Positions 28,582 to 55,450 are shown, counted from the stretch's first letter. The stretch: 64,000 bases of DNA from a bacterium (GCA_965203325.1 OZ241875.1:1152001-1216000), one strand, 5' to 3'. Translations and numbers: made by a program. Notes: generated by a model not told the origin, from the sequence alone.

Positions 28582-28658
28582 TGGCAGGCCAGGAGGGACT
28601 CGAACCCCCAACCGCCGGATTTGGAGTCCGGTGCTCTACCAAATTGAGCCACTGGCCT
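28582..28658 (-). tRNA. tRNA-Trp(CCA)
   Basis: Cloverleaf, anticodon loop CTCCAAA, 3' CCA. Confidence 0.97.
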
Positions 28659-28699
28659 GTGAAAACCTTTGTTGTAGCGAAACGACCGCCTTGTCCGCT

Positions 28700-29878
28700 C
28701 TACTCGACGACCTCGGTGACGACGCCGGCCCCCACCGTGCGGCCCCCCTCGCGTATCGCGAAGCGTAGCTCGCGCTCCATCGCTATCGGCGTGATCAATT
28801 CCACGTCCAGCGACACGTTGTCCCCAGGCATTACCATCTCCCGCCCCTCGGGCAGCGTCACCAGACCCGTCACGTCCGTCGTACGGAAATAAAACTGCGG
28901 ACGGTAGCCGTTGAAAAATGGCGTGTGGCGACCGCCCTCTTCTTTCGTCAGGATGTACACCTCGCCCTTGAACTTCAGGTGCGGCTTGATCGACGCCGGC
29001 TCCGCCAGCACCTGGCCGCGCTCTATCTCGTCTTTCTTCACGCCCCGGAGCAGTACACCCACGTTATCGCCCGCCTGGCCCTGGTCCAGGAGCTTTCTGA
29101 ACATCTCCACACCCGTGGCGACGGTCTTCCTCGTGTCCGTGATGCCCACGATCTCCACCTCATCGCCCACGTTCACGATACCCCGCTCCACGCGGCCCGT
29201 CGCCACCGTACCCCGGCCGGATATCGAGAAAACGTCCTCCACCGGCATCAGGAACGGTTTATCCACGTCGCGGACGGGTTCGGGGATGTAGCCGTCCACC
29301 GCCTCCATCAAATCGTCTATCGAGGAGGTGTCCGTCCCCTCCAGGGCTCTCAGCGCAGAACCCGGCACCACCGGGATGTCGTCGCCCGGAAACTCGTAGG
29401 TCGAGAGAAGCTCGCGGACTTCCAGCTCCACCAGCTCCAGGAGCTCCTCGTCGTCCACCATGTCCACCTTGTTGAGATACACGCAGATGTAGGGCACCCC
29501 CACCTGGCGGGCCAGCAGGATGTGCTCGCGCGTCTGCGGCATCGGGCCGTCCGCCGCCGATACCACCAGTATCGCCCCGTCCATCTGCGCAGCGCCCGTT
29601 ATCATGTTCTTCACGTAGTCCGCATGGCCCGGACAGTCCACGTGCGCGTAGTGGCGGTTCTCCGTCTCGTACTCCACGTGCGCCGTCGCTATCGTGATAC
29701 CGCGTTCGCGCTCCTCGGGCGCCTTGTCGATCTCGTCGAACCCGATCTCCTCCGCCATCCCCTTCTGCGAGAGGTGCCTCGTGATCGCGGCCGTCAACGT
29801 CGTCTTCCCGTGGTCCACGTGACCTATCGTCCCCACGTTCACGTGCGGCTTCGTGCGCTCAAACTTCGCCTTCGCCAT
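28700..29878 (-). CDS. tuf: Elongation factor Tu (second copy)
   Basis: Protein matches the first copy except one E/D difference. Confidence 0.99.
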
Positions 29879-30109
29879 GACGCGAATTCTCCTTCTGTTG
29901 AATATTCAAAAAACAATTATCTTCATGGGGAGAGGAACCATTTCCTCTCTACCCTTGCCATTCCCGAAAAACGCGCCTTTATACCCGCTCGGCCGAAACC
30001 TTGTCCATCGCCAAAGGGAAACCATGCGAACCCGAGGGATTCCAGGGCGCTTCATGCGACTCGCAGAATAATGCACGAACCTCGAAATTTCAATGAACTT
30101 CGCCTGCCC

Positions 30110-30185
30110 TGGAGCCCACGACCGGACTTGAACCGGTGACCTCTTCCTTACCAAGGAAGTGCTCTGCCGGCTGAGCTACGTGGGC
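30110..30185 (-). tRNA. tRNA-Thr(GGT)
   Basis: 76 nt, loop TTGGTAA, 3' CCA. Confidence 0.97.
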
Positions 30186-30365
30186 CGGCTACGCCCCGGG
30201 CATGCGAACATCATTTGTTTCAACCGGAGCAACCTCGGCGAACGATGACCTCCGGCATTCGCTCCGGGCGGATAATACAACTTATCCCGTCCAGAGCAAC
30301 CCCGGGAGCCAAAATCCACACGAATGAAACTCATATCAAGAAAAGGCGAAAGCCTCGAATCATCC

Positions 30366-30441
30366 TGGAGCGGGAAACGGGGCTCGAACCCGCGACCCTC
30401 AGCTTGGAAGGCTGATGCTCTACCATCTGAGCTATTCCCGC
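30366..30441 (-). tRNA. tRNA-Gly(TCC)
   Basis: 76 nt, loop CTTCCAA, 3' CCA. Confidence 0.97.
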
Positions 30442-30489
30442 TTCTGAATCCAAAGCGCCCGTCTCAAAGCGTCCCGACTATCTATCTGC

Positions 30490-30574
30490 TGGTGGGGAGG
30501 GGAGGATTCGAACCTCCGAAGGCTGAGCCGTCAGATTTACAGTCTGATCCCTTTGGCCACTCGGGAACCTCCCC
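30490..30574 (-). tRNA. tRNA-Tyr(GTA)
   Basis: 85 nt, long variable arm, loop CTGTAAA. Confidence 0.97.
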
Positions 30575-30740
30575 GGAAAACCGCCGTTCATCAAAACAAC
30601 AACCACAAAAGCTATCAAAAAAACCTTGCGGGAACCATCGACTCCCCGAAGCCGTCACATCCACCGAAGCCCGTATGGAAAAACCGCAGACATTCTCCCC
30701 CGGATTTTCTCCGGCGAGGGCCGGGAGGCGCGTCCCGCCG

Positions 30741-30816
30741 TGGAGCTGGCGAGAGGACTCGAACCTCCGACCTGCTGATTACAAATCAGCTGCTCTACCA
30801 GCTGAGCTACGCCAGC
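30741..30816 (-). tRNA. tRNA-Thr(TGT)
   Basis: 76 nt, loop TTTGTAA, 3' CCA. Confidence 0.97.
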
Positions 30817-43280: not shown

Positions 43281-45110
43281 CTACACGAACAAAATGCCGT
43301 AGCGATACCTCCGGTCGATCCACCACGCCGTGCAGAGGGAGAACCCCGCCAGGAGCGCGAGCCCGCCCGACTGTGTCCAGGTGCCCACGAGCAGCGCCCC
43401 GACCAGGAACATCAAGGCGAAGACGAATACGCTCAAAGCCAGCCACAGACCCGCGAGCGCTGATATGGGCGCCGAACGCGCGTCCGGCCCTCGCACCCGG
43501 CCCCATGCGCCCGGCGGATGCACCCTCGTCCAGAAATTTCGCAAAACCTCCGCCCGCGCGGGCCTCGTGATGAAGGTGACTATCAGCATCGCCGCGAAGC
43601 CGACGCCCACCTCCGCGGCCAGCAATACGGGAAATGCGGGCGGTACCCCATCCCAGTGGAGATAGAGGGCGGTCGCGCCCGCGGCCAGCATTCCCGAGAT
43701 TTCCGTCCAGGCGTTCGCGCGCCACCACAGCCAGCGCAGGATCACCGGAAGCCCCAGCCCCGCACCGAGCGAGATGTGGAACTTCCACGCTACCTCGATG
43801 CTTTTGATTTGCCCCGCCACGGCGAAGGCGCCGAGCGCCATGATCAACACGCCCAGGCGGCTGACGAAGACGACTTCGCGCGCGCCCGCTCCTTTTCTGA
43901 TGAAGCGCGCATAAACGTCGTTCACCAGATAGCTCATCCCCCAGTTCAGGTGCGTGTCCACCGTGCTCATGAACGCGCCCAAAAGACCCACCAACACGAG
44001 GCCGAGAACCCCCGCCGGCAGAAGTTTCTCCATCAGGAGGGGATAGACCGCCTCGCGGTCAGCGAGAATTTTCGCCTCCATCGTGCCTGGGAGAACGTCC
44101 ATGCCCTTTGGCACGAGGATCAGGCTCACCAGACCGATGAGTATCCACGGCCAGGGCCTCAGGACGTAGTTCCCGACCGTGAAGAGGAAAGCGCCCGCCT
44201 GGGCGTCCCTCGGCGTGCGCGCCGAGCACAGCCTCTGGCCGATGTAGCCCCCGCCGTCGGCGTTGTTGTGCGCCCACCAGACCACGAACAGATAGATGAG
44301 GATCACCTGTGCCCCCGCCCATCCCGCGCCCTCGGGCGGCAGGAAGGAGAGAACAGCCGCCGCGCCCTCCGCGCCGTAAATCTCGCCCAGCTTCGCGCTC
44401 ATGCCCGAGAGCCCGCCCACCGCTTCGACGGCGTACCACGCGAACAGGCAGCTTCCGGCCATCGCGATGACGAACTGGAACAAGTCGGTGAGCATGACGC
44501 CGCGGATCCCGCCCGCGCTCGCATACGCCGCTATCATCAAGACGAGCAGGGCGACCGTTACGCTCTCGTTCACGCTTCCCATCGTGAGGACGGCGGGCCA
44601 GTACGCCTCGACGGCCGTCCACAGGTTTTGGGGCAGAATCTCCTCCCATCTCAAGAAGGGCTCGGCGATCTTCGCCATGGCGCGGAACACCCAGCCCAGG
44701 ACGATCAGGTTCACGATGAGGGAGGAATAGACGGCCTTGAAGCCGCGCAGGAATGCGCCGGGGCCGCTCCCGTAGCGCAGTTCGATGAGTTCGGCGTCGG
44801 TCACCACGCTCGCGCGCCGCCAAAGAGGGGCGAAGAAGACCGCGACGCCCACGTTCCCGATGACCCACGCCCACCAGAACCAGTTTCCCGAAATCCCGCG
44901 CTTGGCGACGATGCCGGCCACGACGAGGGGTGTGTCCGAGGCGAACGTGGTCGCCACCATCGAGGTGCCTATCCACCACCAGGGCAGGCTGCGCCCGGCC
45001 ACGAAGTATGAGGCCAGGCTCTTAGACGCCACTCGCGAGGTGAGAACACCGACGAGCAAGGCGAAAACGATGTAGCCGAGAATGAGCGACCAGTCCAGAG
45101 TCGAGAGCAT
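43281..45110 (-). CDS. Sodium:solute symporter family protein
   Basis: YFVAGRSLPWW, SMVATTFASDTPL, QRLCSAR, AFMSTVDTHLNWG. Confidence 0.93.
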   Translation of the reverse strand: MLSTLDWSLILGYIVFALLVGVLTSRVASKSLASYFVAGRSLPWWWIGTSMVATTFASDTPLVVAGIVAKRGISGNWFWWAWVIGNVGVAVFFAPLWRRASVVTDAELIELRYGSGPGAFLRGFKAVYSSLIVNLIVLGWVFRAMAKIAEPFLRWEEILPQNLWTAVEAYWPAVLTMGSVNESVTVALLVLMIAAYASAGGIRGVMLTDLFQFVIAMAGSCLFAWYAVEAVGGLSGMSAKLGEIYGAEGAAAVLSFLPPEGAGWAGAQVILIYLFVVWWAHNNADGGGYIGQRLCSARTPRDAQAGAFLFTVGNYVLRPWPWILIGLVSLILVPKGMDVLPGTMEAKILADREAVYPLLMEKLLPAGVLGLVLVGLLGAFMSTVDTHLNWGMSYLVNDVYARFIRKGAGAREVVFVSRLGVLIMALGAFAVAGQIKSIEVAWKFHISLGAGLGLPVILRWLWWRANAWTEISGMLAAGATALYLHWDGVPPAFPVLLAAEVGVGFAAMLIVTFITRPARAEVLRNFWTRVHPPGAWGRVRGPDARSAPISALAGLWLALSVFVFALMFLVGALLVGTWTQSGGLALLAGFSLCTAWWIDRRYRYGILFV

Positions 45111-45240
45111 GCGCACGTCTCTACGAATGGGCGGGCTTCGGGCGCATCCTACAGGGAAAGACAAGAAGATGCGATACGGCAGGCCTTGCGTCCCGACGCA
45201 GAAACGTCCCGCAGCGCGTGCGGGGCGCTTCACCCAAAAG

Positions 45241-45388
45241 AAAAACCTCCTCCCGTCTCCGGGAGGAGGCTCTCGCAGGGAGTAGATGCGAGATGTATGA
45301 TTGCGTGGCGGAGGAGCGCCGACCCAATCAGCGCTCCTCGCGCCGGCCGGTCGGGGCGTGCCGCCTAAGAACGCCCCGACCGGCATTT
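45241..45388 (-). ncRNA. Candidate sigma54-dependent small RNA, copy 1
   Basis: Four hairpins, the last a terminator with U tract; near-identical to 50659-50809. Confidence 0.7.
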
Positions 45389-45399
45389 CCTGTATCCAA

Positions 45400-45415
45400 G
45401 GCAAGCGCCGCGCCG
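45400..45415 (-). promoter_or_regulatory. sigma54-type -24/-12 promoter (weaker match)
   Basis: CGGCGCGGCGCTTGCC (GG-N10-GC), about the same distance from the RNA as in copy 2. Confidence 0.55.
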
Positions 45416-45492
45416 TGTTGCTCAAAAGATGCGCGCGCCTGCTTCTCGGCCCGCCGGGCACCGCCCGCCCAACCGGGTCGGCGGGCGCCGGT

Positions 45493-46686
45493 TTAGCGGG
45501 CGACGAAGTTCCGGTGCACCCAGCGGTCGTTCCCGCGCCGGACTTCCATGTAGAACGACTCGCTCGCCTTGCGCGTCTCCAGGTTCAAGCCGCCCGGCAT
45601 CGCTCTCAAAGCGGGCTTCGCGGCGCGCGCGGAATCGATGAACGCGGCGACCTCGGCGAGTGTGGGCCGTATGCGTCTGTGCGCGCCTTTTTCGGCAATG
45701 GCCTCCGTCGCCGCCGCCTTGAGCTGCCGCTGCCACAGCTTGCGGAACAGGCCGGTGCTCTCGAATTCATCGCCGCTGTTGATCCGGCCGTTCACCGCGA
45801 AGACATAGCCCACGGCATCCGGATGCTTTGCCGACAGTCCACCCAGGGCTTTTTCATAGTCCGCCACGGCGGACGCGAGGCGCTTGTTCTCCAATGACAA
45901 CTGGAGGCTCGAACGCGAGCGTTCGTCGGCGACGCGCGCACGCACGGCCCGGCCCAACCCCTGCTGTGTCATCGCGACCGAGCGCCACACTTCGCCCTGA
46001 AGAGATGCGCCTCTTCGCCGCCGTATCCTCCCCAACCTTCCGCTCCAAACGGCTTCGGGAGCGGTCTCGCGCCCCATGCTTTTCATCATCGCAATCTTGC
46101 CGGCTCTCGAAGGCATGCGGTATGCGGAGGTCGAAAACGCCATCACATTCTCCAGGCCGCGCCTGGCCCACCTGCCCTGCTCCACGCAAAACGCGCCGAT
46201 GGGGATGTAGCCCGACTTCGGGGGGACGAGCAGGCTGGTGAGCAGGACACGGTCCTGCTTGCCTCCCTTGACGATGTCCCCCGACTGGATGAAGACCTCG
46301 CGATCGCCCAGGTTGCGGACCTTGAGGCGGCCGACGCTGCCGGTTTCGACGACCTTGACGAGGCCCCGCCTCATCGCCTCGCCCAGGGTGATCGGCGCGG
46401 GGCCTTCGCTTCGGCCTTCGCGGTGAATCAGATAGATGGAGAGATTGTTCTGCGTGTAGGGGCCGCTCAGGCGGTAGTCCTTCCCCGCTGTAGCATTGGC
46501 AGTCGCCGGCGGTAGCCCGATTGCGACCGCGCAGGCGAGGAGAACGGCGACGCCACACGCCCGGAACATTCTCGATGCAACCCGCGCCCTGCGGGCCGGA
46601 CGCCCTTCTAAAGATCTGATGTGCATGATTTTCCCTCCCCGATCGCTCAATCCCGGCAGCGCAATCTCTTCCATATCGCTCAACAA
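45493..46686 (-). CDS. Exported ARPP-1/DUF6569-like protein (start may be ~46569)
   Basis: Signal-like segment; L.V.N..VFIQSGDIVKGGKQDR, FCVEQGRW, QGEVW. Confidence 0.7.
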   Translation of the reverse strand: MLSDMEEIALPGLSDRGGKIMHIRSLEGRPARRARVASRMFRACGVAVLLACAVAIGLPPATANATAGKDYRLSGPYTQNNLSIYLIHREGRSEGPAPITLGEAMRRGLVKVVETGSVGRLKVRNLGDREVFIQSGDIVKGGKQDRVLLTSLLVPPKSGYIPIGAFCVEQGRWARRGLENVMAFSTSAYRMPSRAGKIAMMKSMGRETAPEAVWSGRLGRIRRRRGASLQGEVWRSVAMTQQGLGRAVRARVADERSRSSLQLSLENKRLASAVADYEKALGGLSAKHPDAVGYVFAVNGRINSGDEFESTGLFRKLWQRQLKAAATEAIAEKGAHRRIRPTLAEVAAFIDSARAAKPALRAMPGGLNLETRKASESFYMEVRRGNDRWVHRNFVAR

Positions 46687-46841
46687 GCGGCGTTGCCGTA
46701 CATTCTCGTACGGCAGCCGCTTCTCGTATTTCTTTATTTCAGCCTATCTAGGAGTTATGACGGGGCCGGGTTCCACCTGTGGAAATTACGGGTTGCGACG
46801 GAATGACGAGCATAGGCAAAAGGGAACGGGGGTTTTGTTTT

Positions 46842-46869
46842 GTAGGGACAGGTCGCGACCTGTCCCTAC
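46842..46869. repeat. GTAG-REP perfect palindrome
   Basis: GTAGGGACAGGTCGCGACCTGTCCCTAC. Confidence 0.85.
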
Positions 46870-46890
46870 GGTGGAATCCCGACCGAGAGG

Positions 46891-47143
46891 AGAATTGTCG
46901 AAAAAGCCCCCTTGTCAGGGGGTAGAGGAAACACCCCTCTCGACTGGAAAAGCAACCCCCCCCCTACCCCCCCCTTGTCAGGGGTCAAACGCGAGTGATG
47001 AACGAGCGTTTGCATAAGCCATTGACGAGAAACACATCGTCTTGCAAAACCTCCCTCTTCGGTCGGTTTTGACCCCTGACAAGGGGGGGTAGGGGGGGTT
47101 GTCTTTATGGGATTTCCCTCTCAGGGGGTTTTTCAACAACCCC
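46891..47143. mobile_element. Composite MITE-like element; inner TIR unit 46953-47101
   Basis: Outer TTGTCGAAAAAG..TTTTTCAACAACCCC; inner TIR CAACC(n)TACC(n)TTGTCAGGGGTCAAA; inner unit is an inverted copy of 55027-55172. Confidence 0.75.
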
Positions 47144-47174
47144 ATGAGGGGAAGTATTTTTCTATCGCAACCGT

Positions 47175-47213
47175 CGACGCAAAAACGCCCCGCAGCGCGT
47201 GCGGGGCGTTTCA
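47175..47213 (-). terminator. Terminator-like hairpin after the xdh gene; repeated at 45194-45232
   Basis: AAACGCCCCGCACGCGCTGCGGGGCGTTTTTG. Confidence 0.55.
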
Positions 47214-47245
47214 GATGGAAGGATATTGTGCTCGGTGCCAGTCGT

Positions 47246-49492
47246 CTAGCCCTGGCTTCCGTTCGTCTTGAGGCGTCCCAGCACCTCCAGGACGTGGTCC
47301 GGCGTGATGGGGATGCGCGTGAGGCGCGCGCCTATCGCCTGTCCCGCCGCGCAGGCCACCGCCGCGGCCGCCGCCGTGCAGGGGGGTTCGCCGATGCCCT
47401 TGGCCCCGTAGGGCCCCAGGCCCTCGCCGGATTCCAGGATGACGTTGTCCCATTCGGGCGTGTCCACCGAGGTGGGGATGAGGTAGCCGTGGAACTCGTT
47501 GTTCAGGAGCGCGCCCTTTTGCGTGAGGACCTCTTCGGTCAGGGCGTGGCCGACGCCCATCATCGCGCCGCCCTCGAACTGGCCTTCCACGTGCTGCACG
47601 TTGATGGACTGGCCCACGTCGTGGCCCGACCAGTAGTTGAGCACGCGGAGTTCGCCCGTATCGACGTTCACCTCGACTTCCGCCGCGTGGATGCCGAACA
47701 CGTAATCCATCCAGCCGCCCGCGTCGCCGTACTGCTCGTTACCCTCGTATTCGTGGACGCCGAGCTTCGTCTTGCCCACGGCGTGGAGGTCGATACCCAT
47801 CTTCCTTGACTGCGTCACGGCTTCGGCGAAGGAGACATCGCGCTCTTCGGCCGCTTTCACGTACACCCGGCCCTCGCGGATATCCAGGTCCTCAGGGTTC
47901 GCTTCGAGAAGTTCGGCGGCGCCCTTCAGAATTCTGTTCTTGAGTTCCGCCGACGCCCGGTAACACGCGCCGCCCGAGATCATCGTCTGGCGCGATCCTG
48001 CAGTGACCCCTACCAGCGGGGTGACGTGGGAGTCCGACATCGTCACCGTCACGTCCTCGAGCGCTATTCCTAAGGCTTCCGCCGCAATCTGGCGGTTCGT
48101 CTGTGTCTGGCCCGCGCCGACGTCCGAAGCGCCGGTGCGCACGCTCACGCTGCCGTCCTCATCAATGCCCACATAGACTTCGCCCTCGTTCCTCGGCCTT
48201 CCGTATCCGCCGACGTTCCCGATGATCCCGACGCCGACGCGCCAGGGGCCGTGGTCTTTTTCGGGGACGCGGCCCGCCGAGCGGCCGATGAGCTTTTTCG
48301 TTTCCTCCGCCAGTTCGGGCAGCATCACGCGCGTGGGCACGGGCTGATTCTGGATGAGGGTCTGGCCCTTCGCGATGAAGTTTCTCTCGCGGAACTCGAG
48401 CGGGTCCATCCCCAGCCGCTCCGCGAGTTCATCCATCTGCGCTTCGTAGGCGAAACACACCTGGTTCGCGCCCACGCCGCGCATCGCCTCGGTGAAGGGG
48501 TTGTTCGTCCGGACGGCGCGCGAGCGGCCCCGCGCGTTGGGTATCTCATAGGGTCCCGCGCTCACCACGAGCGCGCCCAGCAACAAACCCTTGCTGTTGG
48601 CCGTGTAGCCACCCGCATCGCCGATGATGTCGACTTCTATGGCGGTGAGTTTCCCGTCCTTCGTCGCGCCCGTCCTGTACTTCATGACGAAGGGATGCTT
48701 CTTGCTGCCAGTGTTCATGGTCTCCTCGCGCGAGTAGGCCATGCGCACGGGCCGCCCCGTCCGGATCGACAGGAGCGCCATGAAGGCGCCGAGCAGCGGG
48801 TGCTCCTTGCCCCCGAACGCTCCGCCCAGCATCGGGCAGTCATACCGCACGCGGCTGAGGGGGAGGCCCAGCGTCCGCGCCACGTTCTGGTAGTTCTCTA
48901 TCATCTGCGTGGGCACGCGGATGTTCACCACCCCCCGCTCGTCCACCCAGGCGACGCCGCCTTCGGGCTCGATGAAGGCGTGATCCAGACAGGCGGAGAA
49001 ATAGGTCTTCTCGACGATAACGTCCGCCCCGGCGAAGCCCGCCTCCACGTCGCCCTTGTCCGCCTTCCAGTCGCAGACCACCTCGCCCTCTTCGAGTGTG
49101 GCGAAGTCGTAAGCGCCCGGCAGCGGCTCGTAGACGACGCGCACGAGCGAGGCCGCCTCTTCAGCCAGGTCCCGCGTGTCGGCGGCCACGAGGGCGACCG
49201 CGTCGCCGATGTCGACCACGAGGTCTTCGGCCAGCACCGGGTAATCGGGATAGCGGCCCGCGTTCAGGCCGGGAATGTCCTTCGCCGTCAGGACGCAGTG
49301 CACGCCGGGCAGAGCGAGCGCTTCCGTCGCATCAATCTCCACGATCTTCGCCGGCGTCATCGTGGCGCGGACGGCTTTCCCGTAAATCTCGCCCGGCATG
49401 TGGAAGTCATCGCCGTAGACCGTGTCGCCGACCGCCTTCGCCAGGGCGTCTTCTTTCGTCGGCGACGCGCCGACATGCGTCATCTGAGCCAT
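47246..49492 (-). CDS. Xanthine dehydrogenase family molybdopterin-binding subunit
   Basis: GGAFGGK, AMRGVG, GPYGAKGIGEPP. Confidence 0.93.
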   Translation of the reverse strand: MAQMTHVGASPTKEDALAKAVGDTVYGDDFHMPGEIYGKAVRATMTPAKIVEIDATEALALPGVHCVLTAKDIPGLNAGRYPDYPVLAEDLVVDIGDAVALVAADTRDLAEEAASLVRVVYEPLPGAYDFATLEEGEVVCDWKADKGDVEAGFAGADVIVEKTYFSACLDHAFIEPEGGVAWVDERGVVNIRVPTQMIENYQNVARTLGLPLSRVRYDCPMLGGAFGGKEHPLLGAFMALLSIRTGRPVRMAYSREETMNTGSKKHPFVMKYRTGATKDGKLTAIEVDIIGDAGGYTANSKGLLLGALVVSAGPYEIPNARGRSRAVRTNNPFTEAMRGVGANQVCFAYEAQMDELAERLGMDPLEFRERNFIAKGQTLIQNQPVPTRVMLPELAEETKKLIGRSAGRVPEKDHGPWRVGVGIIGNVGGYGRPRNEGEVYVGIDEDGSVSVRTGASDVGAGQTQTNRQIAAEALGIALEDVTVTMSDSHVTPLVGVTAGSRQTMISGGACYRASAELKNRILKGAAELLEANPEDLDIREGRVYVKAAEERDVSFAEAVTQSRKMGIDLHAVGKTKLGVHEYEGNEQYGDAGGWMDYVFGIHAAEVEVNVDTGELRVLNYWSGHDVGQSINVQHVEGQFEGGAMMGVGHALTEEVLTQKGALLNNEFHGYLIPTSVDTPEWDNVILESGEGLGPYGAKGIGEPPCTAAAAAVACAAGQAIGARLTRIPITPDHVLEVLGRLKTNGSQG

Positions 49493-49518
49493 CGTATCCT
49501 CCTGAATATCCCCAAAAG

Positions 49519-50517
49519 CTATCCGCGCAGGGCCGCCACGTCCACCACCTGACCCGTCGTTGCGCTCTGGACGACCGCCTCGAGTACGGCGACCACTTCA
49601 ATGCCCTCGGGCCCGCCGGTCTCGGGCGTCGCCTCGCCCCGGATGCACTTGCAGAACTCGTCCATCTCATCCGCCAGGGCGTCTCCGCCCACGACCTCGA
49701 CTTCCGTTCGGGCTTCCTCGCCCACCTTGGCCACGTAGAGCTTTCCGCCTTCCTCTTCGCTGTAGGCCCTCATCTTCGTGCCGAAGGCCGCCGTGTCGCA
49801 TATCTTGGGAACCACGAAGGAAGAACCGATGTGGCCGAGCGGGCCGCTCTCGTATTCGATGATGATGCTCGTCGCATCATCCAAATTCGTCTTGCCGAGC
49901 AGCTTCTTGCTGAAGGCGGCCACCCGCTTCGCGGGTCCGGCCAGGTATTGCAGGTTGTCGATCATGTGGACGCCCAGGCCCGTCATGGAACCGGCGGGAC
50001 ATTCGGCGGGGTCGTTGCGCCAGCCCGGCCTGGATTCGAAGCCCATGGGAAGCGAGAGGTTCGCCTCCACCTGATGCACCACACCCAGTTCGTCATTATC
50101 TATCATCTCGCGCATCTTGCGGTTCGCGCCGAAGCGGCGGCGGTGATGGCCGACTTGCAAGGTGACGTTCGCGCTTGAGGTCGCTTCGTGCGCCTTTTTG
50201 GCCTCATCGACGGTGAGCGTGAGCGGCTTTTCGACGAAGACGTGCTTTCCGGCCGATGCGGCCGAAGAAATCATGTCCAGGTGCGTGGAGTGGGGCGTCG
50301 CGACGATGACGCCCTCCACCTCGGGGTCGTTCAATAATTCGTCGAGGCTGCCCGCCGTCCGGCAACCGTGTTTCTCGGAAAACGCCTTGCGGGCGTCCTC
50401 GCTGCGCGCAAAACCCGTGACCACCTCGCCCGAACCGCTCCGGTTGAGCGCCTCCACCAGAACGCCGCCCCACCAGCCCAGCCCGATAGAGGCGAGGCGC
50501 ACCTTGTCCGTAGCCAT
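49519..50517 (-). CDS. Gfo/Idh/MocA family oxidoreductase
   Basis: IGLGWWG, ATPHSTH, GKHVFVEKP, GVHMID. Confidence 0.93.
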   Translation of the reverse strand: MATDKVRLASIGLGWWGGVLVEALNRSGSGEVVTGFARSEDARKAFSEKHGCRTAGSLDELLNDPEVEGVIVATPHSTHLDMISSAASAGKHVFVEKPLTLTVDEAKKAHEATSSANVTLQVGHHRRRFGANRKMREMIDNDELGVVHQVEANLSLPMGFESRPGWRNDPAECPAGSMTGLGVHMIDNLQYLAGPAKRVAAFSKKLLGKTNLDDATSIIIEYESGPLGHIGSSFVVPKICDTAAFGTKMRAYSEEEGGKLYVAKVGEEARTEVEVVGGDALADEMDEFCKCIRGEATPETGGPEGIEVVAVLEAVVQSATTGQVVDVAALRG

Positions 50518-50658
50518 TTTTCGACTCCTTAATCACTGAATGGATGAATTTTCAACATCGAATATACGCCGAGTGATTTCACTTGGGCCGCACCATAACC
50601 CAACATCGCCCGCTTGAAAACCGCGCCGGAAGAAATTGGTCCGAATAAAAGCCCGCCA

Positions 50659-50809
50659 ATAAAAAACCTCCTCCCGTCTCCGGGAGGAGGCTCTCGCAGG
50701 GGGTAGATGCGAGATGTATGATTGCGTGGCGGAGGAGCGCCGACCCAATCAGCTACTCCTCTCGCCGGCTAACCGGGGCGTGCCGCCTATGAACGCCCCA
50801 ATCAGCTTG
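50659..50809 (-). ncRNA. Candidate sigma54-dependent small RNA, copy 2
   Basis: Same four-hairpin fold as copy 1 with compensatory changes; U6 tail. Confidence 0.72.
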
Positions 50810-50820
50810 CTCTTATAATA

Positions 50821-50836
50821 TGCAATAGCTGTGCCA
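50821..50836 (-). promoter_or_regulatory. sigma54 -24/-12 promoter
   Basis: TGGCACAGCTATTGCA, matching TGGCAC-N5-TTGCW. Confidence 0.85.
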
Positions 50837-50982
50837 TTTGCATGGAATTAGAATATGCCTTATTTTTCAATCAGATAATAATATATACGTTCGGTCAAAT
50901 TGTCATTTTGTCACGATATGTCCGGCGAAAACGACAAATCGTCATGGCGGAGAATCATATTTCAGGTGGAAATTTCCTGTTT

Positions 50983-51615
50983 TTACCTCGAAGTGGGCGA
51001 TTTTTCGGGAAAGACGTCGAACGCCTCGGACACGGCGGCCTTCATCTCATCCCCCTGGGAGAGGGCCGTCGTCGCGCGGGCCCCCGATACCCACAACGCC
51101 TCCAGGGAGCCCAGGTCGATCAGGCGTATTTCCACACTGGCGACGCACACTTCGACGTCTTCGCAGGTGCGCTCTCCTCCGGCGATCACCACCGCCTGCG
51201 CGCCCGAACGCTTAAGCGCCCCCAGATGGACTTCGGCGATTCCACCCGCAGCGTCCAGCAGATCCTCCGCCTTCGTTTTTGCCAGCTTCTCCGGCCAGCG
51301 AAGCGCCAGATAGCCCTTGGCGGCAAGGGCGTCGCGTAGCAAGAAGGCGCCCTCCACCATCTCGATTTTTTTCACATCGGGCGCCTTGAGCCCCGCCTGC
51401 GCGTAGACGTCGCGGAAGAGGCCCGTCCAGTCGCTCGGGTAGCGAAACGGAGCGACGACGACCCGCTCGAGCGCCCGTATCCGCCCCGGCCTGACGACGC
51501 CTTGCATCGTCGACACCTCATAGGCGCAGGCCGGAATCATCAGGAGCATAAAAACGATCAGAGAGGATCGAACCCGCGATGCGAAGGCGTTTTGTTTCAC
51601 GATCCGAGGCTCCAT
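50983..51615 (-). CDS. Putative lipoprotein, function unknown
   Basis: Hydrophobic stretch ending IPAC; VVVAPF, IRLIDL..LW. Confidence 0.65.
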   Translation of the reverse strand: MEPRIVKQNAFASRVRSSLIVFMLLMIPACAYEVSTMQGVVRPGRIRALERVVVAPFRYPSDWTGLFRDVYAQAGLKAPDVKKIEMVEGAFLLRDALAAKGYLALRWPEKLAKTKAEDLLDAAGGIAEVHLGALKRSGAQAVVIAGGERTCEDVEVCVASVEIRLIDLGSLEALWVSGARATTALSQGDEMKAAVSEAFDVFPEKSPTSR

Positions 51616-52310
51616 GCGATTCGCTCCACCAGGCCGAACAGCGTCACATACGCGCCCCAACTCTCATACCAAATCGACGCGCCGTAGGAAGCCGCCACTC
51701 CCCATCCTCCCACCGAGACGAGCGCGGCGCCGCCGATGAATACGAGGCCGAAGAAAAAGATGAAGGCCCAGGAGAAAATCCGCCCGCCCCGCGCGATGTC
51801 GGGCTGCGACGCGCCCAGCGCGCGGAGCGTCATGAGCACGTGCAGGCATAGCGTGAGGCCGGCGAGGAACGCCGCCGCCCAGCGAATCTCCTCGTATCCG
51901 AAAGTCCAGTCGAGCAACGCGCCCAGAATCAACACCACTATCGTCGGCAGCGGGAAGAAATAAGGCGCGAGCGTGATGATTGGGTTCGTGCCGCTCAAGC
52001 CCACCTTCCCGCTTCCCTGATTCACCTCGAACGAACGCACCTTCTTCCCCGTGAGCAGGGCGAAGGCCATGTGCGTGAACTCGTGCACGAAGGCGTAGAG
52101 GAACTCCGGCGGACGCAAGCGATGCCAGACGGCGTATGCGCAGGCGCCCGCGATGAAGGCCCAGCCCTCGGGCGCAGGCATATATGAACCGCCGTCTGCG
52201 AGAAAAGCGGCCGGGAGATTCTTGCCGAACGCGAGCGCCGCGCCCCAGCAGGCGGGCAGGAGGAGGACAGCGACCATCCAGGCCAGGGGTCTCAAGAGAA
52301 ACGATTTCAT
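51597..52310 (-). CDS. Membrane metallopeptidase, M50B-like
   Basis: FVHEFTH (HExxH), ITLAPYFFP, several TM helices. Confidence 0.75.
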   Translation of the reverse strand: MKSFLLRPLAWMVAVLLLPACWGAALAFGKNLPAAFLADGGSYMPAPEGWAFIAGACAYAVWHRLRPPEFLYAFVHEFTHMAFALLTGKKVRSFEVNQGSGKVGLSGTNPIITLAPYFFPLPTIVVLILGALLDWTFGYEEIRWAAAFLAGLTLCLHVLMTLRALGASQPDIARGGRIFSWAFIFFFGLVFIGGAALVSVGGWGVAASYGASIWYESWGAYVTLFGLVERIAWSLGS

Positions 52311-55026: not shown

Positions 55027-55172
55027 CAACCCCCCCTACCCCCCCTTGACAGGGGTCAAAACCGACCGAAGAGGGAGGTTTTGCAAGACGATGTGTTTCT
55101 CGTCAATGGCTCATGCAAACGCTCGTTCATCACTCGCGTTTGACCCCTGTCAAGGGGGGGTAGGGGGGGTTG
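55027..55172. mobile_element. MITE-like TIR unit, inverted copy of 46953-47101
   Basis: Interior matches the reverse complement except one base. Confidence 0.8.
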
Positions 55173-55450
55173 ATTTTCAAGACGAGAGGCGAGCGGGGGT
55201 CTCGGACAGGCATGGAGGCCTTGTCCCTACGGATGAGAGAGGTTTCGTTCGTCATTCCTGTGCATGCGCCGCAAGGCCGGCAATCTCGATCGGAGTCGCA
55301 AATCTCACCCAATAGCGACCCGCGCGCCGTTTTGCTATACTCCCGAAAACTAAAGACAATCCGCATGGAAGAGTTTTTTCGATCCTGAGTCAGGAGACAT
55401 ACCGGGGGCGGCTTGTTTCCCGCATCTCCTGCAGCATGGAGGAAAACGTC

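Follow-up and report, generated by a model that had tools for sequence, protein, structure and literature searches.

In a stretch of 64,000 nucleotides of a bacterial genome (GCA_965203325.1, OZ241875.1:1152001-1216000, hereafter the window) we found two minus-strand copies of a repeat of about 155 nt, which is a conserved and strongly structured non-coding RNA family whose helices are backed by covariation. We call it RNA-A. The family is outside Rfam and previously undescribed. Judging from the sequence, the copy at the ancestral locus (copy 2) is a transcription unit dependent on sigma-54 and on a bacterial enhancer-binding protein (bEBP), and the other one (copy 1) is a promoter-less paralogue that is not credibly driven by sigma-54. 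Regarding the function, we favour, at about even chances, the reading that RNA-A is an independent small regulatory RNA (sRNA) gene acting in trans.

The initial annotation of this stretch had described a non-coding repeat of about 140 nt occurring twice. The sequence itself, the alignment of both copies and BLAST (around 93% identity over 137 nt), as well as a covariance model built for the family, confirmed this repeat. According to BLAST and the covariance model, the genome of 4,392,711 bp contains two copies of RNA-A, both of them in the window. A third match of the model in the genome (23 bits) was a bare terminator hairpin and was discarded as a copy.

All the structural elements that had been proposed for the minus strand are present. 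In copy 2, stem 1 occupies positions 50806-50768, stem 2 positions 50766-50728, the linker positions 50727-50715, stem 3 with its C-rich loop positions 50714-50692 and the terminator positions 50691-50667, followed by a run of six T at 50666-50661; copy 1 has the same four helices plus terminator. The minus strand folds with -85.8 kcal/mol (z = -6.15) and none of 200 shuffled sequences was as stable, whereas the fold of the plus strand is weaker (z = -3.99). Between copy 1 and copy 2, positions 3 and 5 of stem 1 show compensatory changes (C-G to U-A and G-C to A-U) and positions 4, 6 and 7 become G-U pairs, whose plus-strand counterparts would be C-A mismatches; these changes are exactly those first reported.

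Covariation was evaluated on an alignment (A2) of 34 sequences, with 49 pairs once stem 3 was added. RNAalifold recovered stem 1, stem 2 and the terminator from this alignment, and 97.1% of the cells were paired. We counted 19 pairs changed on both sides, compared with 8.6±1.9 in shuffles, and none of 500 shuffles reached 19. When the structure was slid by 1-3 columns as a control, between 2 and 8 pairs were changed on both sides and the pairing was 42-50%. Most of the covariation is in stem 1 (9 of 16 pairs), followed by the terminator (5 of 11), and stem 2 is nearly invariant, its pair 54:81 changing from A-U to C-G or U-G in distant homologues. Loop 1 (AGGCGGCAC), loop 2 (GAUYGGNUC) and the sequence CUCCNCCGCCAC are almost fixed in all the genera. 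The length of the loop-3 region differs by 1, 2, 3, 4 and 11 nt among homologues, therefore a conserved reading frame is ruled out. Thus, conservation and covariation support the proposal of a paralogous structured non-coding RNA family with an intrinsic terminator.

Regarding the distribution, the covariance model (R1) detected RNA-A in 37 of 51 genomes of the phylum. The matches included 36 of the 41 genomes of one family, among them all 22 of the genus of our genome, and none of the 9 genomes of the other three families. The genomes of the family without a match were four genomes of about 2.1 Mb of the genus g5 and one genome that is 87% complete. By BLAST, the RNA was found in 31 of 61 related genomes, namely in 30 of 36 from the same family and in none of 24 outside it. 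A scan of 185,579 species genomes with the exact pattern returned 30 loci, all of them in genomes already found by the other searches (27 duplicates of known loci and three second copies). The carriers are uncultured metagenome-assembled genomes (MAGs) labelled Nitrospinota, Nitrospinaceae or Candidatus Tectomicrobia. The 37 genomes contain 44 strong loci, and 42 of these, that is all but the copy-1-type loci of the genomes G010 and G011, make up the set to which the counts of loci below refer. Three weak matches of the model (L064, L102 and L103, 23-28 bits) were rejected, as inspection showed just terminators, and both the promoter and the conserved loops were missing. A search of metagenomes with the pattern AGGCGGCAC-N26-31-GATYGGNTCG (7 of 64 parts scanned) gave 120 loci; none of them fits the covariance model, so we regard them as chance matches.

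At the gathering threshold, Rfam 15 matched only five tRNAs in the whole window and no family at RNA-A, which agrees with the earlier statement that this is not a described family. These tRNA genes are clustered on the minus strand at 28585-30816. In E-value mode, the best matches of both copies (Scr6106 with 26.6 bits against a cut-off of 52.5, nse_sRNA with 22.2 against 75 and rpfG with 18.2 against 75.9) reached at best about half of the cut-off and were confined to the C-rich hairpin and the terminator.

The predicted sigma-54 promoter of copy 2 is TGGCAC-N5-TTGCA. In 37 of the 42 loci, the string TGGYAY-N5-TTGC is found no more than 60 nt from stem 1, and in two identical loci of the genome G014 it is situated 66 nt further upstream, behind an insertion, which makes 39 loci with the promoter. 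With position -12 assigned to the C of the GC element (50822), transcription would start at about G50810, some 4-5 nt before stem 1. In the whole genome we found 7 sigma-54 promoter strings, compared with 28 expected from the base composition. The insertion in G014 (L057:2365-2440, identical in L011 and L036) is about 65 nt long, and the 5' end of the RNA is partially duplicated at its beginning; because it lies between promoter and stem 1, this species would make a 5'-extended RNA.

Upstream of this promoter there are two putative upstream activator sites (UAS) of the form TGAC-N5-GTCA with an AT-rich centre, whose positions are fixed at about -77 and -108. At least one site was present in 34 of 38 distinct promoter regions, and 26 regions had two, while such sites occur in 0.08% of 5000 random genome windows of 120 nt. 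The interval between sites and promoter contains a conserved AT-rich block, possibly the place for a DNA-bending protein. The genome encodes rpoN (one match to Sigma54_DBD) and two strong bEBPs (Sigma54_activat), one with the architecture REC-AAA-HTH_8 and the other with GAF-AAA-HTH_8, both of them below every NCBIfam equivalog cut-off. Together, the -24/-12 element, the activator sites and the presence of rpoN and bEBPs argue for copy 2 being the sigma-54 and bEBP-dependent unit stated above. Part of UAS site 2 is also covered by a sigma70-like string (ATGACA-17-TATTAT, 50906-50878); since one such match was found and 1.2 were expected in shuffles, it carries no weight.

These results modify the initial description of twin sigma-54-driven RNAs. 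A GG-N10-GC element had been reported before each copy, and that of copy 2 is conserved, but that of copy 1 (CGGCGC-N5-TTGCC) is not conserved in orthologues. Actually, the loci without a promoter are exactly the three of copy-1 type, namely copy 1 of the window, L037 and L043. In the first one a degenerate -24/-12 remnant that keeps GG-N10-GC is left, in L037 5 nt of the promoter spacer have been lost and in L043 there is no GG at the right distance. We did not find any UAS upstream of copy 1 or of these two orthologues, which for copy 1 is explained by the stop codon of the preceding gene, coding for an ARPP-1 domain protein, being only about 100 nt away. Therefore, the description is correct for one copy only, because copy 1 and both examined orthologues lack promoter and enhancer. 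Nevertheless, the RNA body is 93-96% identical among the three loci and the flanks are 64-84% identical, so copy 1 appears to be selected as an RNA. All three loci are situated between the ARPP-1 gene and a gene for a sodium:solute symporter (SSF); the latter assignment comes from Pfam, and the SSF rows of our tblastn survey of loci denote similarity at the DNA level only.

We then searched the whole genome for the same control module. It contains 51 UAS-like sites, and only at RNA-A copy 2 and at a second candidate RNA gene outside the window, which we call RNA-B, was such a site followed by a sigma-54-like promoter within 260 nt. Its promoter is TGGCAC-N5-ATGC, accompanied by an AT-rich block like that of RNA-A. 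The RNA-B region has about 175 nt without a credible open reading frame (ORF), ends in a GC-rich hairpin and meets the 3' end of a convergent HAD hydrolase gene, and it has no match in Rfam. RNA-B was found in 21 of the 22 genomes of the genus and in one genome of the genus g6, and its homologues keep the UAS, the AT block and the promoter. They are also predicted to share a conserved structure, in which 9 pairs covary and C/U-rich runs are left unpaired. A 9-mer, ACAUCUCGC, is common to RNA-A and RNA-B; by our own estimate, chance would give about 0.1 such matches, and it was set aside.

Both RNAs are likely activated by the REC-AAA-HTH_8 response regulator, whose gene is next to one for a PAS histidine kinase and is separated from RNA-A by 135 kb in this genome. 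This assignment is made by exclusion, because the GAF-type bEBP sits 4 kb from a third promoter with a different palindrome. Full-length orthologues of the regulator (71-100% identity) are present in every genus with RNA-A, and the g5 genomes, where RNA-A is absent, have a partial match of about 50% only, yet they do have rpoN. In many genomes of three genera the regulator gene lies 20-50 kb from RNA-A (for example in G029:C1, G035:C110, G019:C1 and G003:C3). The third promoter, TGGCAC-N5-TTGCT, is intergenic and outside the window (G000:C1:2852373, plus strand; L105 at about 8373), around 3.3 kb downstream of where the gene for the GAF-type bEBP ends, and is followed by Usp and RimK-like genes. 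Upstream of it there is a perfect palindrome, ATCGTATAATTACGAT, unlike the UAS of RNA-A.

The two copies had been placed in unrelated gene contexts. This was not the case, as both of them belong to one co-directional cluster of the minus strand with the order M50B-like gene, 225-aa ORF, RNA-A copy 2, Gfo/Idh/MocA oxidoreductase gene (Gfo), xanthine-dehydrogenase-family gene (Xdh), a repeat-filled gap, ARPP-1, RNA-A copy 1 and SSF (Table 1). The ATG of the SSF gene at 45110 is in frame with the listed ORF. The 225-aa ORF has no family match in Pfam or NCBIfam, and neither it nor the M50B-like gene matches an RNA-binding family of these databases. The gap between xdh and ARPP-1 contains, at 46825-47150, short interspersed repeats with C-rich/G-rich inverted repeats, which have around 60-100 copies in the genome according to BLAST and a depth in the DNA runs of roughly 30-130 times that of the flanks. 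One more copy of this repeat is situated at about 55027-55189.

Table 1. Coordinates of RNA-A, its predicted control elements, the neighbouring genes and RNA-B (positions in the window unless a contig is given)
Feature	Position	Strand	Basis
RNA-A copy 2 (ancestral locus)	50657..50813	-	Covariance model 178.9 bits, fold z = -6.15, covariation
RNA-A copy 1, paralogue between ARPP-1 and SSF symporter	45236..45391	-	Covariance model 178.0 bits
Predicted sigma-54 promoter of copy 2, TGGCAC-N5-TTGCA	50821..50836	-	Conserved in 39/42 loci
Putative upstream activator site 1, TGACGATTTGTCG, 108 nt before TGG of -24	50932..50944	-	
Putative upstream activator site 2, TGACAAAATGACA, 77 nt before -24 element	50901..50913	-	
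Conserved AT-rich block (TATCTNATTGAWAAATAAGG type), interval between UAS and promoter	50858..50880	-	Alignments
Conserved sigma70-like motif TTTTCA-N17-TATGGT, spacer between RNA-A terminator and gfo	50592..50620	-	Alignment
Gfo/Idh/MocA oxidoreductase, first gene 3' of copy 2	49519..50517	-	Pfam
Xanthine-dehydrogenase-family molybdopterin-binding subunit (Xdh)	47246..49492	-	Pfam; below all NCBIfam equivalog cut-offs
ARPP-1 domain protein, directly upstream of copy 1	45493..46686	-	Pfam
Sodium:solute symporter (SSF), about 125 nt downstream of copy 1	43281..45110	-	Pfam; NCBIfam sss superfamily
Conserved 225-aa ORF, directly upstream of UAS	50983..51660	-	Conserved across loci
RNA-B enhancer-promoter site	G000:C1:2929597-2929786	+	Whole-genome UAS and promoter scan
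RNA-B candidate, about 175 nt, outside the window	G000:C1:2929597-2929975 (L109:3098-3475)	+	

We suggest the following mechanism. An NtrC-family protein, most likely the REC-AAA-HTH response regulator beside the PAS histidine kinase, would activate the sigma-54 polymerase at TGGCAC-N5-TTGCA from the two TGAC-N5-GTCA sites, which it would bind some 77 and 108 bp upstream of this promoter. Copy 2 would be a transcription unit of its own, with the start 4-5 nt before stem 1 and the stop at the 11-bp GC-rich terminator and its U6 run. The released RNA-A would act most likely in trans and without Hfq, its unpaired pyrimidine-rich parts (the AUCAU linker and the C-rich loop/pre-terminator region) pairing with purine-rich ribosome-binding regions of mRNAs, and the invariant loops of stem 1 and stem 2 would be a structural or protein-contact module. 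Copy 1 would be made only by read-through from ARPP-1, as an RNA of the 3'-UTR type, and its terminator would also limit transcription into the SSF transporter gene.

Several observations weigh against RNA-A being an independent gene that acts in trans. A same-strand gene follows the RNA in 41 of the 42 loci, and the body of copy 1 is kept under selection despite the decay of its promoter; both facts fit a role in cis that depends on position. The best conserved bases sit in the structured 5' domain. The C-rich hairpin of stem 3 is absent or not conserved in most homologues beyond the genus, its place being taken by a pyrimidine-rich stretch or by a C-rich 5' arm of the terminator, and the anti-Shine-Dalgarno-like CCUCCUCCC is buried within the terminator stem. 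When the four unpaired segments were scanned against 6993 windows of Shine-Dalgarno plus start codon in one genome, only tail values were obtained, the best duplexes (z = -3.4 to -4.7) being as expected for the tails of the distributions. The top matches of loop 3 were to one multi-copy ORF resembling those of insertion sequences (IS). The start region of this ORF has at least 12 near-identical copies (for example at G000:C1:888840, 2714202 and 3568280), and it is probably an IS transposase. Moreover, we found no Hfq (PF17209), ProQ or CsrA domain in this genome, which is estimated to be 95.5% complete; from the initial proposal to look for rpoN, bEBPs and hfq, the first two were therefore present and hfq was not found. 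As for the activator, its assignment comes from exclusion between two bEBPs and from a co-occurrence with RNA-A that is in effect one correlated loss. Besides, G024 has the regulator without a match to RNA-A and G034 has the RNA without a regulator match of at least 71%, both being fragmented assemblies. Finally, copy 2 had no covering contig in the assembled contigs of two metatranscriptome runs (one from coral and one from sponge, each with 6% of the sampled words of window positions 45000-51000), in which contigs break at the two-copy repeat. Contigs of these assemblies match xdh, gfo and ARPP-1 in part, with an identity of 88-100%, and one of 184 nt (45080-45264) runs from the SSF start region into the terminator of copy 1. 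They say nothing on expression, because the assemblies break at the repeat and carry-over of DNA is possible.

RNA-A could instead be a cis leader or attenuator of the Gfo-Xdh operon (copy 2) and of the SSF gene (copy 1), where a metabolite or an antiterminator protein on stems 1-2 would decide whether the terminator forms, the enzyme operon and the transporter being gated together. It is classic for riboswitches that a single element precedes an enzyme operon and also a transporter, and the placement of RNA-A resembles this. In 38 of the 42 loci, from eight genera, the RNA is followed on the same strand by the Gfo gene at a distance of 106-368 nt; Xdh is also downstream in 36 of these 38, the 225-aa ORF is upstream on the same strand in 35 of them, and the three copy-1-type loci precede SSF. 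This explanation stays alive because a gene follows the terminator-bearing RNA co-directionally in those 41 loci. The high identity of the copy 1 body next to a decayed promoter is the pattern expected if the body matters in place, the loops of stems 1 and 2 are invariant, and the strings GGAG and CUCC recur in stem 2 and the terminator, which makes an alternative pairing conceivable. However, the only locus without a same-strand downstream gene, L101 (the second copy in the genome G030), retains a UAS site, the promoter, the terminator and a structure of 118 bits, and its downstream genes are convergent (ComEC and an overlapping ORF of 187 aa, ending 43 nt from the end of the RNA terminator). 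In addition, the spacer between terminator and gfo contains the sigma70-like motif TTTTCA-N17-TATGGT, with at most two mismatches in all 23 distinct loci of the genus and in a related form in 34 of 37 distinct loci, a count made without a shuffle control; it is a candidate for the Gfo-Xdh operon's own promoter. On inspecting the alignments, with no dedicated computation, we saw no conserved antiterminator helix; stem 3 abuts the terminator and the covariation of pair 54:81 backs stem 2. RNA-B, with no gene downstream of it, has an identical promoter module, and control by a signal is already supplied by the sigma-54 promoter. Because of the convergent genes of L101, the motif in the spacer and the module shared with RNA-B, we favour a stand-alone sRNA over a leader, which we consider rather unlikely.

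We find it doubtful that RNA-A is a protein-binding decoy which titrates or escorts an RNA-binding protein or an enzyme, as GlmY, CsrB and 6S RNA do. The binding sites would be the invariant loop 1 (AGGCGGCAC) and loop 2 (GAUYGGNUC), as well as a second GGCG, which is situated at the base of stem 2. This would agree with the strongest conservation being in loops and helices of fixed geometry and not in a linear seed, with the 5' domain being kept in all genera while the 3' half is variable, with no Hfq-type chaperone having been found and with the empty target scan of one genome. Nevertheless, no candidate protein partner was identified, no CsrA was found in the genome, RNA-A lacks the repeated array of GGA-type motifs, and the neighbouring M50B-like gene and 225-aa ORF have no match to an RNA-binding family. 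A mobile or selfish repeat similar to a miniature inverted-repeat transposable element (MITE), or a cluster of chance hairpins without function, can hardly be maintained. The two copies are near-identical and 5.4 kb apart, with highly repeated elements between them at 46825-47150, but the genome of 4.39 Mb has two copies only, orthologues of the locus are kept in synteny in eight genera and show compensatory changes, and the promoter and the UAS are conserved. Copy number and synteny thus refute a MITE, in line with the initial expectation.

A broader reading joins the independent sRNA gene with a second function. One NtrC-family two-component system would have only sRNA genes (RNA-A and RNA-B) as direct sigma-54 targets, and RNA-A would be dual-function. 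This combination seems improbable to us. As part of it, a circuit like that of LuxO and Qrr may have arisen independently in a symbiont-rich phylum without Hfq, and a 5' domain sensitive to a ligand or a protein may gate read-through of the terminator into Gfo-Xdh, with copy 1 doing likewise for SSF.

The known systems closest in logic are LuxO-sigma-54-Qrr and GlrR-sigma-54-GlmY, and neither their RNA families nor their regulator equivalogs were matched. In the excerpts available on the Vibrio Qrr RNAs, several sRNA genes are driven by the NtrC-family regulator LuxO and sigma-54. RNA-A shares with them the NtrC-family regulator and sigma-54 (predicted here), the intrinsic terminators and the paralogous copies, and the module of UAS plus promoter was found only before non-coding RNAs. 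Unlike Qrr, RNA-A belongs to another phylum, has about 155 nt with a large structured 5' domain, no Rfam match, a UAS of the form TGAC-N5-GTCA and no Hfq found in its genome, and its candidate regulator scores 366.8 bits compared with the LuxO equivalog cut-off of 800. GlmY of Enterobacteria, controlled by GlrK/GlrR and sigma-54, is presented in the accessible parts of the reports as a structured sRNA that acts mainly as a protein decoy and has a homologous sibling RNA (PMC7073468, PMC4152352). RNA-A is likewise structured, has a paralogous copy and is predicted here to be under a two-component system and sigma-54, but it has no Rfam match and its regulator reaches 367.8 bits against the GlrR cut-off of 763. 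The excerpted literature on small RNAs and sigma-54 gives Qrr, GlmY, NcS25 and Campylobacter as the cases of sigma-54-dependent sRNAs, and no paper naming Nitrospinota was among the matches listed.

Other resemblances concern the 3' half of the RNA. The cuckoo RNAs (CcsR / RSs0680, SmelC397) consist, in the part of the source available (PMC4615179), of 2-4 adjacent hairpins with CCUCCUCCC in each loop. RNA-A contains exactly this 9-mer, but, compared with that description, only once and as the 5' arm of the terminator stem. We rejected its membership in this group, as the motif is not in a loop and the Rfam scores are 13.6 bits for ar14 (cut-off 58.8) and 12.4 for RcsR1 (cut-off 60). The RsaE/RoxS-type sRNAs of Firmicutes, according to the available part of the source, have unpaired C-rich motifs proposed to pair with G-rich ribosome-binding sites in an Hfq-free manner (PMC2790875). 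The C-rich loop/pre-terminator region of RNA-A and a genome without an Hfq match recall this description, which is a resemblance only; there is no homology, the promoter class is another one and the C-rich hairpin is not conserved beyond the genus. Similarly, the model of anti-hemB (RF02837) aligns with the C-rich hairpin and the terminator that comes after it, but membership was discarded with 23.6 and 25.7 bits against a gathering threshold of 49.5, the alignments including the last 58-71 nt only.

Almost nothing is known about the regulatory RNAs of uncultured phyla. In this case, a complete unit is readable from the sequence alone, with enhancer sites, a sigma-54 promoter, a covarying RNA, a terminator, a candidate activator and a second RNA that would be under the same control. 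This provides a concrete and testable regulon for a lineage found as MAGs, with relatives seen in sponge and coral libraries, and a new RNA family model usable for annotation of the Rfam type. Furthermore, copy 1 offers a natural case of an sRNA paralogue without a promoter which is still under selection.

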